A model generated the notes under the pieces. It did no database searches and was not told where the DNA came from. It saw only the letters and a program-made list of their open reading frames with translations. Position numbers and translations under genes: made by a program. From a bacterium (GTDB lineage: Bacteria; Patescibacteriota; Patescibacteriia; UBA1558; UBA10009), in contig JABHGM010000001.1 in the NCBI GenBank assembly GCA_018672055.1, forward strand, positions 890,093-946,732: DNA of 56,640 nt, in the 5' to 3' direction. Of this stretch, positions 38,101-41,522 are shown in pieces. Every line of letters starts with the position of its first letter. The stretch's first letter is position 1.

Positions 38101-41100
38101 ATTACTACCACTAGTTATACTACTGGAGAAATTCAAAATGAAACTGAAACTCAAACATTTGATATAAATAATAATGTATTGAATCATTCTAGAAACTACT
38201 ATGATAATCTTGAATTAAATCAAATTGATATTGGTAATCTTACTAGTTCAGAAATTTGGAATGATGATGTTAATGAATGGCAAACAACATATTTGGAATA
38301 TAATGAAGTTGGAAATATAGTAAATACTACTAATGCTTTAAATAGCACTGAATCTTTTAATTATGATGATACATATGATTATAAGACAGAAACTACTAAT
38401 GCTTTAAATCAAACATATATTGTTACTTACAATAAAGCATCTGGACAAATTAAAGAAACTATTGATCCTAATAATTACATTACAGAATCAATATATGATC
38501 CCTTAGGCCGATTACTTGAAACTAAACAATCAAAATTAAATTCAGAAGGTTTAATTACTATTGCTAAACAAGAATATTCTTTTACAGATCATGGTTATGA
38601 AATAACTTTACTAGAAAATAATAGTTTAACTGATTTTGAACCATTAATCTCTAAATATTATTACAATCAGCTTAATCAGTTAATTCAGATTAAAAGAGAA
38701 GTTCAAAATGGTTATTTAACTTATTTAATAAAATATTTACCTTCAGGACAAATTCAAGAAAAAACTATCCCCTTTCTAAGTAATAACCTAGGTCTAGAAG
38801 AATGGCCTGATAATCAAAATTTAACAGTTTCATATGAATATGATGCCTTAGATAGAGTTATTCAAGAAACTAATGCTTTAGGTACGGTAAATTATAACTA
38901 TTACTTAATGTCTGATGAAAAAGAAGATATTGAGGGCAAGGTAACACGTTTAACTAAAGACGTACGAGGTAATACTATTAGTTTAACTGAATATTTAAAT
39001 GATGAGCCTTTAATAAGTTACTTTGAATATAATTCATCTAATCAATTAATTTCTTTAACTGATGTTAGTGGTAATGTTAGAAACTTTGATGTTAATAATA
39101 CTGGTAACTATACTTCTATTGAAGATTTACATAGAAATGATGAAACAAATTTTAATTATCATGAATATACTTACGATATCTTAGGTAGAAAAACATCAAG
39201 TATTGAACCTTTAGCTAATTACCAAATAAATTATGAGTATGATGAATTAAATAGATTAATTAATAAAAATGAAACATTACTTAATAATAATTACACTTTA
39301 ACTTATGATACTGGTTTAAATGGTATAGGTAGATTAAATATAATAGAAGGTCCTAACTACTTAAAAGAAATGTCATATGATATAGCTGGTAACCTTTTAA
39401 TAGAAACTGAAACTATTAATGATAAAAGTTTTACTACTAGCTATAGTTATGATGATTTCAATAGATTAATTTCTACTACATATCCAAATAATGAAGTAAT
39501 AAATTATTTATATGATGACTATGGCAATATCTCTAAAGTTACCAAGAATAATAATCAAGAAGTAACAAGTAACATTGTATACGACTTCTTAGGTCAAATT
39601 CTGCTCTTAGAATACGCTAATGGCGTAATTCAAGACTTTATATATGATCCAAATCAATTATATCGTTTAACTAATAAAATAGCCTACAGTAATAATAATT
39701 TAATTCAAGGCTTAGAATATGAATACTCAGCAAATGGTAATCTATTAAACATTTCAAATCTTGTAGAAAATCAATTAGCTGGCACCTGGCAATATGGCTA
39801 TGATGATTTAAATAGATTATTATCAGTTACTAAAGAAAATGGTAATTTAAATTATAATATTAATTATCAATATGATGATAGTGGTAATATATTATTTAAT
39901 TCAAGAGTTGGTAATTACGAATATGATGCCATACATCCTCAAGCTGTAACTACTGCAGGGCAACAACAATTTAGTTATGATATACGAGGTAACCAAACAA
40001 ATCAAAACAACTTTAATCTATCATATGACTCAGAAAATAGATTATCTGAAGCAATAAGTAATAACCAACAAATTAATTGGTCATATAATTTAGAAGGTAA
40101 TTTAATACATAAACAGATTAATGAAGATAACTCTGTCTTTAATGAGTATCATATTAATAATACATACCAAGAAGATAATAATTACAAAGTAAATTATATA
40201 TATTTAGCTGATCAAAGAATAGCTAAACTAGTTAGAGTAAAACCTATTGTAAATAATAATTTAAGTAACAGGCAATTACCTCAAATTAAACCAGCTACTA
40301 CCTATTACTATGTCTGGGACCATTTAAATAGTACCAGTGCTGTAACAGATAATAATGGAAATCTAACTGAATTAATTGAATACTATCCATTTGGTTTAAG
40401 CGCAACTGATACAAATTCAGATATGACGGATTATAAGTATAATGATAAATTATTTGATAATGATTTAGAACTATACTTCTATGGTAATAGATTCTATAAC
40501 CCAAATACTGGACGTTTTATATCAATTGATCCTCTACAGAATAATTTAGGTAGTTTTATTCCAGCAGCCATGACTAGTTCTCAATATCAGAATGCATATA
40601 GCTATGCCAATAATAATCCTGTTAAATATATTGATCCAGATGGACAACTAGTATTTTTAGCAGCACTAGCTGTTTCTGCTTTAGTTGGTGCAGCTATTGA
40701 TGTAGCAATTGAAGTAGGAATTCAAATGTATGAAAACAAATCAATGGATTTAACAAAGATTGATTACAAGAAAGTAGGTAAAGCAGCAATTACTGGAGCT
40801 ATTATTGGTGCAGCTGGTTTTGGAGTAGGTACAGCTATTAGTAAAGCATTTAAGGGGGCTAAGGCAATGAGCAGAATAGCAAAAGTTTCAAATGATCTTA
40901 AACCAGGCATAAAACTCACTAAAGCAGAAAATGCTTGGTACAAAGGATTGAGAGCTAAAGGCAAGGTAGTACCAAAAGATTTTAAAAATCCTAATGAGCT
41001 AGGTAGTTTCTGTCCAAAAACTGGTTGTCTAGAACTAAGTAAAAAACTTTTTAAGAACCCTGGTGAAAAAATAGCTACTATAAAACATGAATTCCAACAT

Positions 41101-41340
41101 GGCTTACAAGCTAAAAAATGGAATATGCTAGGTAGAAACCCTTTTAAATTTGAAATTTCTTTAGGCGAATTTAAAGCATATGGAATTGAAAAAAAACTAT
41201 ATAAATATAATTCTCAAAGTTATAGAAAAGCATTAATGCTTGAAACTAAATTCCAAATTGAAGTTATGGATCAATTAGCAAAAAATAGTAAAAATCTATT
41301 TAAAAAATATGGCTCTGATTTAAAAAATATTTGGCATTAA
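35200..41340 (+). CDS. TcB/TcC-like fused polymorphic toxin: signal/anchor, SpvB-type domain, FG-GAP/VCBS repeats, RHS/YD-repeat shell, Rhs core, variable C-terminal cargo
   Basis: 2,046 aa. SpvB-type FNVDKFSGASTYSYDIGLPSSRTLTPALSLSYNS. Six DINGD-type repeats. More than 15 YD repeats (YVYDDYGNL, YDPLGRL, YEYDALDRV, YTYDILGRK, YSYDDFNRL, YGYDDLNRL, YQYDDSGNI and others). Rhs core YYYVWDHLNSTSAVTD..YGNRFYNPNTGRFISIDP, and PVKYIDPDGQL. Confidence 0.9.
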   Translation: MLKLHRAILITILVAFFTFSTNLLQVLAYSQSEVNTSSKTVTKVSKEVKTVDIDQQAEKTVTEVQTLEPVSNDDNELSRENRTNSDFNSLQSKVNDLSNISGLKGNFNVDKFSGASTYSYDIGLPSSRTLTPALSLSYNSLNSNHSFLGQSWNLSMSYIGLRKEKGVDTIYNDNKFEISFLGSNEKLFNTENNIYLLEKESSFLKIEKLNNHWLVTDKQGTKYYFGNTNNSRQINNNLNETYRWYLSYVLDTNNNFVNYNYIQDNNTIYPKNIRYTGNENIESDKEVRFQPYYNNDLTSQEKNIVKYTGGFKEEIDYNLESIEILINSASNNPVAYYNFEYDETTNQLVSILKTAIDENGEAMSYPATTFEYYDEERSYVEENISPLPNDINLSYVTNNETYENNEMRWFDINGDGTEDIVKSIELNNNIINEVYLNHLGTFVASDLTLPVAFVKYGSSNNYPFGNINNALEIFDINGDNKLDLIESYSINDEIFSNIYLNNSGSFIEADYPALPISFAKNIDGQFIKNNDYKIFDINGDSLSDLIRSYEYNGNLYTSTYINFGNGQFEENSNFNIPMAFSVNTANANLPLTSVKVLDINNDSLIDIVRSIKVNGDIISQVYLNKGNGNFNLDSDINIPIEFAELINTVEVANNKLKLIDINADNLPDFVSSYKVNGQNYQDTYLNQGNSKFLSNNDFNINLPFAQFDGTSFKRIANTFALDINHDGNIDFIKNYSTDSGENYFIQKKSNYLTSKRLKKIINPLGSEIIIKYQSSSYYLDENDNNSNSELPFIYDTVSEIEITNNGESLIETYNYAQGKYIYHDLYDKEFVGFGIVTSYDNEGDKYVEEYYHQGGGFNGTELGEYEDNKWKKGKLYKAVTYAQLFNDDFFKISEVRNKWESTPLNENVSFVYIDTTLSQINESDGSLMKAIQYVYDDYGNLIQSTDYAQVENNFDDYVINDLNDGRYITTTSYTTGEIQNETETQTFDINNNVLNHSRNYYDNLELNQIDIGNLTSSEIWNDDVNEWQTTYLEYNEVGNIVNTTNALNSTESFNYDDTYDYKTETTNALNQTYIVTYNKASGQIKETIDPNNYITESIYDPLGRLLETKQSKLNSEGLITIAKQEYSFTDHGYEITLLENNSLTDFEPLISKYYYNQLNQLIQIKREVQNGYLTYLIKYLPSGQIQEKTIPFLSNNLGLEEWPDNQNLTVSYEYDALDRVIQETNALGTVNYNYYLMSDEKEDIEGKVTRLTKDVRGNTISLTEYLNDEPLISYFEYNSSNQLISLTDVSGNVRNFDVNNTGNYTSIEDLHRNDETNFNYHEYTYDILGRKTSSIEPLANYQINYEYDELNRLINKNETLLNNNYTLTYDTGLNGIGRLNIIEGPNYLKEMSYDIAGNLLIETETINDKSFTTSYSYDDFNRLISTTYPNNEVINYLYDDYGNISKVTKNNNQEVTSNIVYDFLGQILLLEYANGVIQDFIYDPNQLYRLTNKIAYSNNNLIQGLEYEYSANGNLLNISNLVENQLAGTWQYGYDDLNRLLSVTKENGNLNYNINYQYDDSGNILFNSRVGNYEYDAIHPQAVTTAGQQQFSYDIRGNQTNQNNFNLSYDSENRLSEAISNNQQINWSYNLEGNLIHKQINEDNSVFNEYHINNTYQEDNNYKVNYIYLADQRIAKLVRVKPIVNNNLSNRQLPQIKPATTYYYVWDHLNSTSAVTDNNGNLTELIEYYPFGLSATDTNSDMTDYKYNDKLFDNDLELYFYGNRFYNPNTGRFISIDPLQNNLGSFIPAAMTSSQYQNAYSYANNNPVKYIDPDGQLVFLAALAVSALVGAAIDVAIEVGIQMYENKSMDLTKIDYKKVGKAAITGAIIGAAGFGVGTAISKAFKGAKAMSRIAKVSNDLKPGIKLTKAENAWYKGLRAKGKVVPKDFKNPNELGSFCPKTGCLELSKKLFKNPGEKIATIKHEFQHGLQAKKWNMLGRNPFKFEISLGEFKAYGIEKKLYKYNSQSYRKALMLETKFQIEVMDQLAKNSKNLFKKYGSDLKNIWH
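35515..36350 (+). other. SpvB/TcB-type N-terminal domain of the RHS protein (approximate borders)
   Basis: The motif tG.asysy.i.lP..r...P.LsLsYnS..s..flGqsWnLs is present (FSGASTYSYDIGLPSSRTLTPALSLSYNSLNSNHSFLGQSWNLS), followed by IYPKNIRYTGN. Confidence 0.6.
36421..37410 (+). repeat. Six tandem ~58-aa FG-GAP/VCBS-like repeats (predicted beta-propeller blades)
   Basis: Repeat cores: WFDINGDGTEDIV, IFDINGDNKLDLI, IFDINGDSLSDLI, VLDINNDSLIDIV, LIDINADNLPDFV and ALDINHDGNIDFI. Each is followed by ..(V/I)YLN.(G)(N/S)(G/S)(N/S)F. Confidence 0.7.
40303..40650 (+). other. Rhs repeat-associated core domain ending in the DPxG-type autoproteolysis motif
   Basis: YYYVWDHLNSTSAVTDNNGNLTELIEYYPFGL..YKYNDKLFDNDLELYFYGNRFYNPNTGRFISIDPL..NNNPVKYIDPDGQL. 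DPDGQL spans 40633-40650 and is in frame. Confidence 0.8.
40651..41340 (+). other. Variable C-terminal cargo (229 aa): glycine-zipper hydrophobic hairpin followed by a domain with an HExxH motif
   Basis: LVFLAALAVSALVGAAIDVAIEVGIQ and AAITGAIIGAAGFGVGTAISKAF are two hydrophobic Gly/Ala-rich helices. They are followed by ..ATIKHEFQHGLQ (HEFQH = 41086-41100) and a downstream GEFKAYGIE. Confidence 0.5.
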
Positions 41341-41378: not shown

Positions 41379-41522
41379 ATAACGTTAATAAAGAACTTTG
41401 AAAATTGAATAAGTAAACAAATAACACATAAAAACAAGGAGAAAGTTATGTGTACCAAGAAAAACAGATATCAATATTTTGTAAGTAATGAAAAAGTAAA
41501 TAAAACCCGAAAAGGAGAAATC

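Follow-up and report, generated by a model that had tools for sequence, protein, structure and literature searches.

In a stretch of bacterial DNA of 56,640 nucleotides assigned to Patescibacteriota (GenBank assembly GCA_018672055.1, contig JABHGM010000001.1, positions 890,093–946,732 of the forward strand; hereafter, the window), a gene at positions 35200–41340 on the plus strand encodes a TcB/TcC-like RHS/YD-repeat protein of 2,046 amino acids (aa). For the protein as a whole, we favor the reading that it is a Sec-exported, fused TcB–TcC-like cocoon whose C-terminal cargo consists of a glycine-zipper hairpin and a divergent Tox-MPTase4 zincin domain, with no immunity gene adjacent; we consider this probable rather than secure. 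Of its parts, the assignment of the cargo is firmer: sequence comparison indicates that it is very probably a divergent member of Tox-MPTase4 and not a new zincin family. No immunity gene lies next to the RHS gene. An earlier reading of the letters alone (the original prediction) had described a possible novel zincin-type cargo behind a hydrophobic hairpin at this locus. It had placed its landmarks correctly throughout (DPDGQL, the two hydrophobic helices, HEFQH at 41086–41100, GEFKAYGIE, and the stop at 41340).

The protein matches the Pfam models RHS_repeat (PF05593, 77.9 bits), TcdB_toxin_midN (60.9 bits), and FG-GAP_3 (36.7 bits), and also TIGR01643 (RHS/YD repeats) of NCBIfam. A predicted Sec signal peptide, read by eye from the sequence, occupies residues 1–28 (35200–35283, ending in QVLA/YS), and n-h-c regions ending in ALA are present equivalently in the two close homologs, P0006 and P0001. 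It is followed by an FG-GAP/VCBS beta-propeller at approximately residues 411–715 (36430–37344; four stretches of PF13517, with approximate limits), a TcdB_toxin_midN domain at residues 717–853 (37348–37758; PF12256, E = 1.3e-16), an RHS/YD-repeat shell at approximately residues 860–1727 (37777–40380; six stretches of RHS_repeat and a precomputed match to PF25023, TEN_YD-shell), and an RHS repeat-associated core at residues 1728–1816 (40381–40650; TIGR03696, Rhs_assc_core, 61.7 bits). The enclosure of a cargo by the shell and self-cleavage of the core after a DPxGL-type motif are established for Rhs and TcC proteins. In the window protein, DPDGQL closes the core (residues 1812–1817, 40633–40650) and is the expected autoproteolysis site. 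The cargo would accordingly be the 229 aa from V1818 onward (40651–41337, with the stop codon at 41338–41340), which have a mass of 25.3 kDa, an isoelectric point (pI) of 9.87, and a net charge of +22. Its toxin part was originally described as rich in lysine, and this was confirmed: 19% of the residues are Lys (pI ∼10, net charge +21), compared with 4.7% in the shell, which has a pI of 4.3. Because the low value comes from the shell of the same protein, the Lys-richness is more than a consequence of AT bias.

An exhaustive phmmer search with the cargo over 1.84 billion representative proteins returned four matches. One of them, P0001, an RHS protein of 2,023 aa, has the whole cargo in common with the window protein, and the other three (P0002–P0004) share only the hairpin, which is followed by other sequence. 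P0006 (2,074 aa, 53% identical overall) was added when the full RHS protein served as the query. Cargo homologs among these 1.84 billion proteins are thus limited to P0001 and P0006, both of them orthologous RHS proteins, whose genes lie in the related loci L003 and L004, respectively. Among the three orthologs, the identity is 62–73% in the hairpin, 50–54% in the shell, and 24–40% in the zincin domain, in which P0006 is 40% identical to the window copy.

The zincin domain occupies cargo residues 68–229 (40852–41337, pI ∼10). In the three-way alignment, the invariant positions are the F of GxF[CN], two Lys, HExxH, an A-K pair four residues further on, and a Gly. The putative zinc-binding and catalytic HExxH is HEFQH at 41086–41100; its H, E, and H are invariant in five aligned sequences, and it falls in one alignment column in all three known homologs. 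It was found in none of the 83 other RHS cargo regions, and a chance occurrence was rejected on the basis of this absence and the in-register conservation. The original prediction could have failed at this point; in fact, the motif is conserved in every homolog found, which supports a zincin-type cargo. Approximately 20–30 residues after HExxH, L-x-E-x-x-A-Y-x-x-E is invariant in the three homologs (L, E, A, Y, and E); in the window it reads LGEFKAYGIE (41161–41190), a conserved acidic helix that is a candidate source of the third zinc ligand. At the position of the family motif F[DN], the window has F-C (41008–41013); the F is invariant, and N follows it in P0006 and P0001. The segment around it, GSFCPKTGC (41002–41028), contains two Cys (CxxxxC) that are found in neither of the two close homologs, and with these the lineage may have a disulfide or additional metal site of its own.

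The family was assigned through P0006 and through profile comparison. The domain of P0006 matches PF15640 (Tox-MPTase4) with E = 5e-6 and 26.9 bits, for which the curated cut-off is 25. Weak zincin matches cover the stretch from the strand to HExxH, namely DUF6782 for P0001 and both DUF6782 and SprT-like for the clade consensus. As bona fide Tox-MPTase4 references, we used the VgrG-linked Rhs toxin of Escherichia coli O104:H4 C227-11, whose cargo scores 117 bits on PF15640 (E = 7e-34), and an LXG toxin encoded on a Bacillus plasmid. When the clade was aligned with these two by hhalign, F[DN]-K-HExxH-AK-[WF]xx[IL]G[RK] fell in register, with E = 2e-4 and a probability of 47% over 52 columns, the profiles consisting of only three and two sequences. 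In the five-way alignment of the three clade members with both references, F, K, H, E, and H are identical throughout, and the canonical members have LSREEHVLNE and LEREEYVFEQ at the position of LGEFKAYGIE. Tox-MPTase4 was defined by F[DN], [RK], and HExxH and is carried on RHS toxins, and the MPTase families are distant relatives of Wss1-like peptidases (Zhang et al., 2012, PMC3482391). P0006 lies above the threshold, the clade profile lines up in register with both references, and the family has been on record since 2012; the original prediction had itself named Tox-MPTase among the candidates. The proposed novelty of the cargo is therefore not supported. PDB sequence searches returned chance matches only (e.g., the T4 clamp loader), and PHROGs gave only a weak match, to the hydrophobic part of the cargo; both were set aside.

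The first 67 residues of the cargo (40651–40851) form a predicted helical hairpin of the glycine-zipper type, with helix 1 at 40654–40731, a polar loop, and helix 2 at 40783–40851. The Kyte–Doolittle means over 19 residues peak at 2.28 and 1.71 in the two helices, for a usual membrane-span threshold of 1.6. The hairpin contains small-xxx-small ladders (G49xxxG53, G56xxxG60, and Ala ladders) and is the best-conserved segment of the whole RHS protein; it has G, A, N, and D positions that do not vary among six proteins. A hidden Markov model of the module located it just past the cleavage motif in the Tc-like RHS proteins P0109, P0114, and P0105 and in the archaeal P0110, each time before an unrelated tail, and a set of proteins, both RHS and non-RHS, has it. 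In P0004, nothing but further Gly-rich hydrophobic sequence comes after the hairpin. More generally, at least one hydrophobic segment occurs within the first 110 cargo residues in 33 of the 86 relatives with a recognizable core end (38%), and two occur in 10 of the 86. The hydrophobic pre-toxin module that had been expected before the cargo domain is therefore present, as a conserved two-helix hairpin; its suggested likeness to PT-TG was not substantiated, as the hairpin scanned alone at E values up to 10 did not match PT-TG (PF14449), nor does it match any other Pfam model. Its recurrence before unrelated tails, together with the lack of a Pfam match, indicates at the sequence level that the hairpin is a separate, reusable pre-toxin module. 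By analogy with known glycine-zipper proteins, we give about an even chance to its being a membrane-entry module.

The intergenic region behind the RHS gene (41341–41522) was scanned for ORFs, promoters, and Rfam families and contains no open reading frame (ORF) of the size of an immunity gene. No plus-strand ORF of at least 20 aa was found between 41341 and 41447, and Rfam gave nothing credible in or around the region. An ATG at 41448 has a good Shine–Dalgarno sequence (AAGGAG) and shares the reading frame of the downstream gene, and hence does not open a separate small ORF. Small ORFs behind the RHS gene are likewise lacking in L003 and L004, and no other small gene common to the loci was found. 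Thus, the original statement that no immunity gene is adjacent applies to the window and also to two related genomes. A conserved immunity gene beside the RHS gene in relatives would have contradicted the original prediction, and these two loci showed none. That prediction had also dismissed a hydrophobic 66-aa ORF on the minus strand (40764–40964) as an antisense shadow of the Gly/Ala-rich coding sequence. This judgment is reasonable, in that the ORF is unconserved, but it is not the only ORF overlapping the cargo, as several shorter antisense ones do so too. We rejected it as an immunity gene because neither its position nor its frame is conserved: the antisense open frames of L003 and L004 lie at other positions and in other frames.

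Both reference toxins differ from the window in this respect. In E. coli, a 69-codon ORF lies 38 nucleotides (nt) downstream of the toxin gene, where a cognate immunity gene has been reported; the preprint tags of the effector and immunity genes (AAF13_16115/16120) do not correspond one-to-one to RefSeq RS16105/RS16110, so that this 69-aa ORF is a candidate for the published immunity protein. In Bacillus, an acidic 162-aa ORF lies 15 nt downstream, a typical immunity position. The two candidates are unrelated to each other and lack a signal peptide, and homologs of either were found neither in the window nor at L003 or L004. A small ORF is also seen 10–130 nt behind some distant Tc-like RHS genes. 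Since small ORFs follow both reference toxins and some of these distant genes, the lack of an immunity gene is a genuine and conserved peculiarity of the clade. On the Bacillus plasmid, the region past the toxin and the 162-aa ORF (L087, 5452–6133 in NZ_CP139484.1) contains a short ORF with an EndoU domain and then another small ORF; the pair looks like an orphan toxin–immunity cassette, an arrangement that the window locus lacks.

A promoter just past the RHS stop had also been proposed. Taken alone, the promoter-consensus matches are not above expectation (8 found, 6.4 expected from shuffles), but a TTGACA-like −35 element, a 17-nt spacer, and a −10-like hexamer are kept just past the stop in the window, L003, and L004, and this conservation supports the claim. 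In the window, the site is TTTACA-17-TAATAT (41350–41378; −35 at 41350–41355, −10 at 41373–41378). We also observed that the DNA after the stop is conserved across the three loci (window, 41341–41530; L003, 14073–14325; L004, 6375–6590), while the proteins are only ∼50% identical. An AAGGAG-N7-ATGTG start is present in the window (at 41448) and in L004, in the same frame as the ATG of the signal peptide (41523 in the window), so that the downstream protein may have an N-terminal extension or leader of 25–43 aa; the equivalent start in L003 opens a separate ORF of nine codons.

The cargo does not behave as a polymorphic toxin tail. Polymorphism of the C-terminus was not seen between the relatives, since all three orthologs carry the same cargo, and no second RHS core or orphan cargo cassette was found within the 56-kb window. 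Orphan cassettes, which the original prediction had suggested looking for, are thus absent at this scale. In this clade, the cargo co-diverges with the shell and is passed on vertically with it, without swapping. Furthermore, the G+C content at third codon positions (GC3) of the RHS gene is 0.127 and equals that of the neighboring housekeeping genes, so the gene is compositionally native. Recent horizontal acquisition was rejected on this ground, the low GC of the gene reflecting its amino-acid composition.

Other searches added little. A word-indexed protein search with the cargo or the three-sequence toxin alignment was empty and missed even the source proteins, so that this negative carries no weight. 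A pattern-based locus search with the cargo or hairpin alignments returned no relatives in genome, metagenome, and viral collections, and it missed even the source loci of the C-terminal queries, which makes its negatives for short C-terminal domains untrustworthy. Plasmids searched by tblastn with the toxin domain of P0006 yielded nothing. The exact RHS protein is recorded in 100 collection blocks, on contigs of up to 0.96 Mb, and at least 20 metagenome runs of marine or seawater origin contain near-identical sequence. In a metatranscriptome of the same study, one contig is exact over 41075–41269, which includes the HExxH codons, and several contigs fall on the downstream gene; this is modest evidence that the RHS gene is expressed, as DNA carry-over is possible. 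ClpB encoded in the window has its closest counterparts in metagenome-assembled genomes of Patescibacteria (CPR), being 62% identical to one labeled 'Patescibacteria group', and nearly all of the 80 loci retained come from CPR lineages; this placement relies on one marker gene and a search biased by its pattern. The more distant relatives of the RHS protein are mostly from Patescibacteria. BC-fusion proteins with SpvB, FG-GAP, TcdB-midN, and RHS parts (P0007–P0123; ∼2,000–3,200 aa) are frequent among Patescibacteria and have archaeal members as well (Methanoperedens, Methanosarcinales), with cargo regions of 141–340 aa and a pI mostly of ∼9 or above.

The comparison with characterized systems shows which parts of the protein are familiar and which are not. 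In the E. coli toxin (AAF13_RS16105), as in the window protein, the toxin domain stands directly behind the Rhs core, with the same motif order (F[DN]-[RK]-HExxH, then AK-[WF]-x-x-[IL]-G-[RK] and the acidic helix) and a similar domain size (∼130–160 aa). However, the two domains are only ∼20–25% identical, and that of the window is far more basic (net charge +21 versus +7). The window protein also has a Sec signal and a TcB/TcC-type N-terminus, whereas the E. coli Rhs protein is VgrG-linked. An E. coli Rhs protein with an MPTase4 domain (Rhs-CT1 of STEC004) is reportedly antibacterial and dependent on a type VI secretion system (T6SS) (PMC6730261). [quoted passage not shown] The hairpin, which precedes the zincin domain in the window cargo, is missing from both the E. 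coli and the Bacillus toxins.

The TcB–TcC cocoon of the Tc toxins (Photorhabdus and Yersinia) has the same parts as the window protein, i.e., TcdB mid-N, FG-GAP propeller, RHS shell, and Rhs core with DPxG(L). Tc cargo genes likewise are not known to have immunity genes. For the Tc cocoon, the measured requirements for a cargo are a mass of at least 20 kDa and a pI of at least 8 (PMC6868009), and the window cargo obeys both rules of size and charge. The window protein differs in that it is a single fused polypeptide with a Sec signal, and in that its cargo carries its own hydrophobic hairpin. SpvB (PF03534) was not matched in the window protein, which gave just a weak match to DUF6531, although most relatives at ∼30% identity carry PF03534. 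The Tc systems belong to insect pathogens, whereas the producer here is a free-living or episymbiotic marine bacterium. For the hairpin, we point to a likeness, with no claim of homology, to the GxxxG-type hydrophobic helices of the Tde1 N-terminus (Agrobacterium tumefaciens), of EsxX, and of the ionophoric toxins of contact-dependent inhibition (CDI) systems. The glycine zipper of Tde1 is required for entry into prey cells (PMC10240207), and glycine-zipper membrane toxins are documented for EsxX (PMC12744356) and the CDI ionophores (PMC11630599). Unlike these modules, the window hairpin has two helices and stands immediately past an RHS cleavage site.

The gene behind the RHS gene (41523–44969, plus strand) encodes a secreted surface protein of ∼1,150 aa with CARDB, a dockerin, and a C-terminal sorting domain of the type IX secretion system (T9SS) type, as identified by Pfam and NCBIfam. 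The original prediction had regarded it as unrelated to the RHS gene; instead, its orthologs directly follow the RHS gene in L003 and L004, and the three are 43–48% identical. They are all secreted, measure ∼1,150–1,270 aa, and have Ig-like domains and the T9SS-type C-terminal sorting domain. In L003 and L004, the RHS stop and the signal-peptide ATG of the neighbor are separated by ∼180–245 non-coding bases. Additionally, the genes at 41523–44969 and 45133–47151 of the window both encode large secreted proteins with dockerin and CARDB, and in one of them the T9SS-type Por_Secre_tail scores above the curated cut-offs. Neither a T9SS nor an outer membrane is known in Patescibacteria, to which the ClpB of this genome is closest; either the lineage assignment is off or the sorting domain serves another use. 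On the minus strand, an ORF of 1,452 aa without a Pfam match (52260–56618) adjoins a gene for a protein of 1,171 aa with three Laminin_G_3 (concanavalin-like) domains (48595–52110). Together with the RHS gene and its neighbor, these two genes make up a cluster of giant, probable surface proteins in a genome that seemingly measures ∼1 Mb.

As a mechanism, we propose that the shell would enclose the cargo, as in known Rhs and Tc proteins, and that the aspartyl protease of the Rhs core would cut after DPDGQL, as its motif predicts. At the target cell, the hairpin of the released cargo might insert itself in the membrane and thereby carry the peptidase or anchor it there, by analogy with Tde1, and the peptidase would then cleave a target protein, a role to which the conserved HExxH and acidic helix point. 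The lack of a signal peptide in the candidate immunity proteins of E. coli and Bacillus suggests that the target of Tox-MPTase4 is cytoplasmic, in which case the Sec-exported version would need an entry device. For the missing immunity gene, the original prediction had suggested a target absent from the producer or a cargo inactive until release, and both fit an encapsulating shell, Sec export, and this producer. Our own explanation is tentative: the likeliest reason, although the weakest link of the scheme, would be that the producer, probably one of the marine Patescibacteria, lacks either the target or the route of entry, and that Sec export keeps the folded toxin out of its cytoplasm. A further elaboration seems to us unlikely, namely that a Patescibacteria episymbiont uses a vertically inherited, immunity-less, Tc-like cocoon, in which an uncatalogued hairpin family replaces TcA, together with the neighboring adhesin to attack or manipulate its host bacterium and not its kin.

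Several points weigh against the favored reading of a Sec-exported cocoon with a Tox-MPTase4 cargo. First, the window cargo itself has no sequence match in Pfam, NCBIfam, or PDB, and the match of P0006 to PF15640 exceeds the cut-off by 1.9 bits and covers profile positions 50–128 of 132. The hhalign probability stays below one half with very shallow profiles, and FC stands in the window copy in place of the F[DN] of the family. Second, the AlphaFold models are poor, with a predicted local distance difference test score (pLDDT) of 38 from one sequence and 42 from three, and so lend no support to the zincin fold; a Foldseek search with the model gave nothing with E < 3, its matches being meaningless. 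The low-confidence model has the order strand–strand–strand, HExxH-helix, Glu-helix. Third, no TcA-like translocator or delivery partner was found among the large ORFs of the window, and L003 contains no TcA-type Pfam domain. Finally, the inspection for immunity genes covered 56 kb of this genome and 10–22 kb of those of two relatives, a scope that leaves room for an unlinked one.

Among the alternatives, the strongest, and still an unlikely one, is that the hairpin itself is the toxin, either pore-forming or membrane-depolarizing, and that the zincin-like domain is an accessory, e.g., for targeting or maturation. The conservation profile of the cargo favors it, with the hairpin at 62–73% identity and the zincin part at 24–40%, as do the occurrence of the module before unrelated tails, the tail of P0004 in which only Gly-rich hydrophobic sequence follows, and the precedent of the glycine-zipper membrane toxins cited above. 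However, the invariance of HExxH, F, K, and the acidic helix in such highly diverged copies argues that the peptidase site is under selection. Moreover, membrane toxins are usually paired with small membrane immunity proteins, none of which is present here, and Tde1 shows that motifs of this kind can act in delivery instead of killing.

Less probable again is a non-antagonistic, teneurin-like surface or attachment protein, the tail of which would act in cis, in anchoring or processing together with the neighbor, and would make immunity needless. This would agree with the co-divergence of cargo and shell without orphan cassettes, the pairing with an orthologous surface protein kept in three lineages, the lack of an immunity gene at every locus, and a GC3 the same as that of the housekeeping neighbors. 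Nevertheless, release of the tail is what an intact Rhs core with DPDGQL would predict, and the family to which the tail is related by homology includes an E. coli member reported as an antibacterial T6SS effector. A basic cargo in an acidic shell is, furthermore, the pattern of toxin-carrying Tc/RHS proteins, and the downstream gene has its own conserved promoter. Least probable of all, and in our judgment very doubtful, is an ordinary toxin–immunity system whose immunity gene is unlinked or unrecognized, lying elsewhere in the ∼1-Mb genome or being a very small ORF or an overlapping one: the candidates from E. coli and Bacillus are mutually unrelated, so that a third type would be unrecognizable by homology, and the hydrophobic antisense ORF does overlap the hairpin region, but the examined Tox-MPTase4 toxins and some distant Tc-like RHS genes have a co-oriented small ORF within 10–130 nt, which none of the three loci of the clade has, no small gene is common to these loci, and the antisense frames are unconserved.

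Zincin toxin tails on RHS proteins have been on record since 2012, and a divergent Tox-MPTase4 is in itself ordinary. What is less ordinary is a small clade, below the detection limit of Pfam, in which the toxin is fixed and not polymorphic and lacks an immunity gene, unlike the family members of E. coli and Bacillus. The hairpin past the RHS cleavage site, for which Pfam has no model, could serve Sec-exported RHS toxins in general as a means of self-delivery. The ways in which Patescibacteria act on their hosts are very poorly known, and the cargo, if it does target a host cell, would count among the few concrete candidate effectors of this group.

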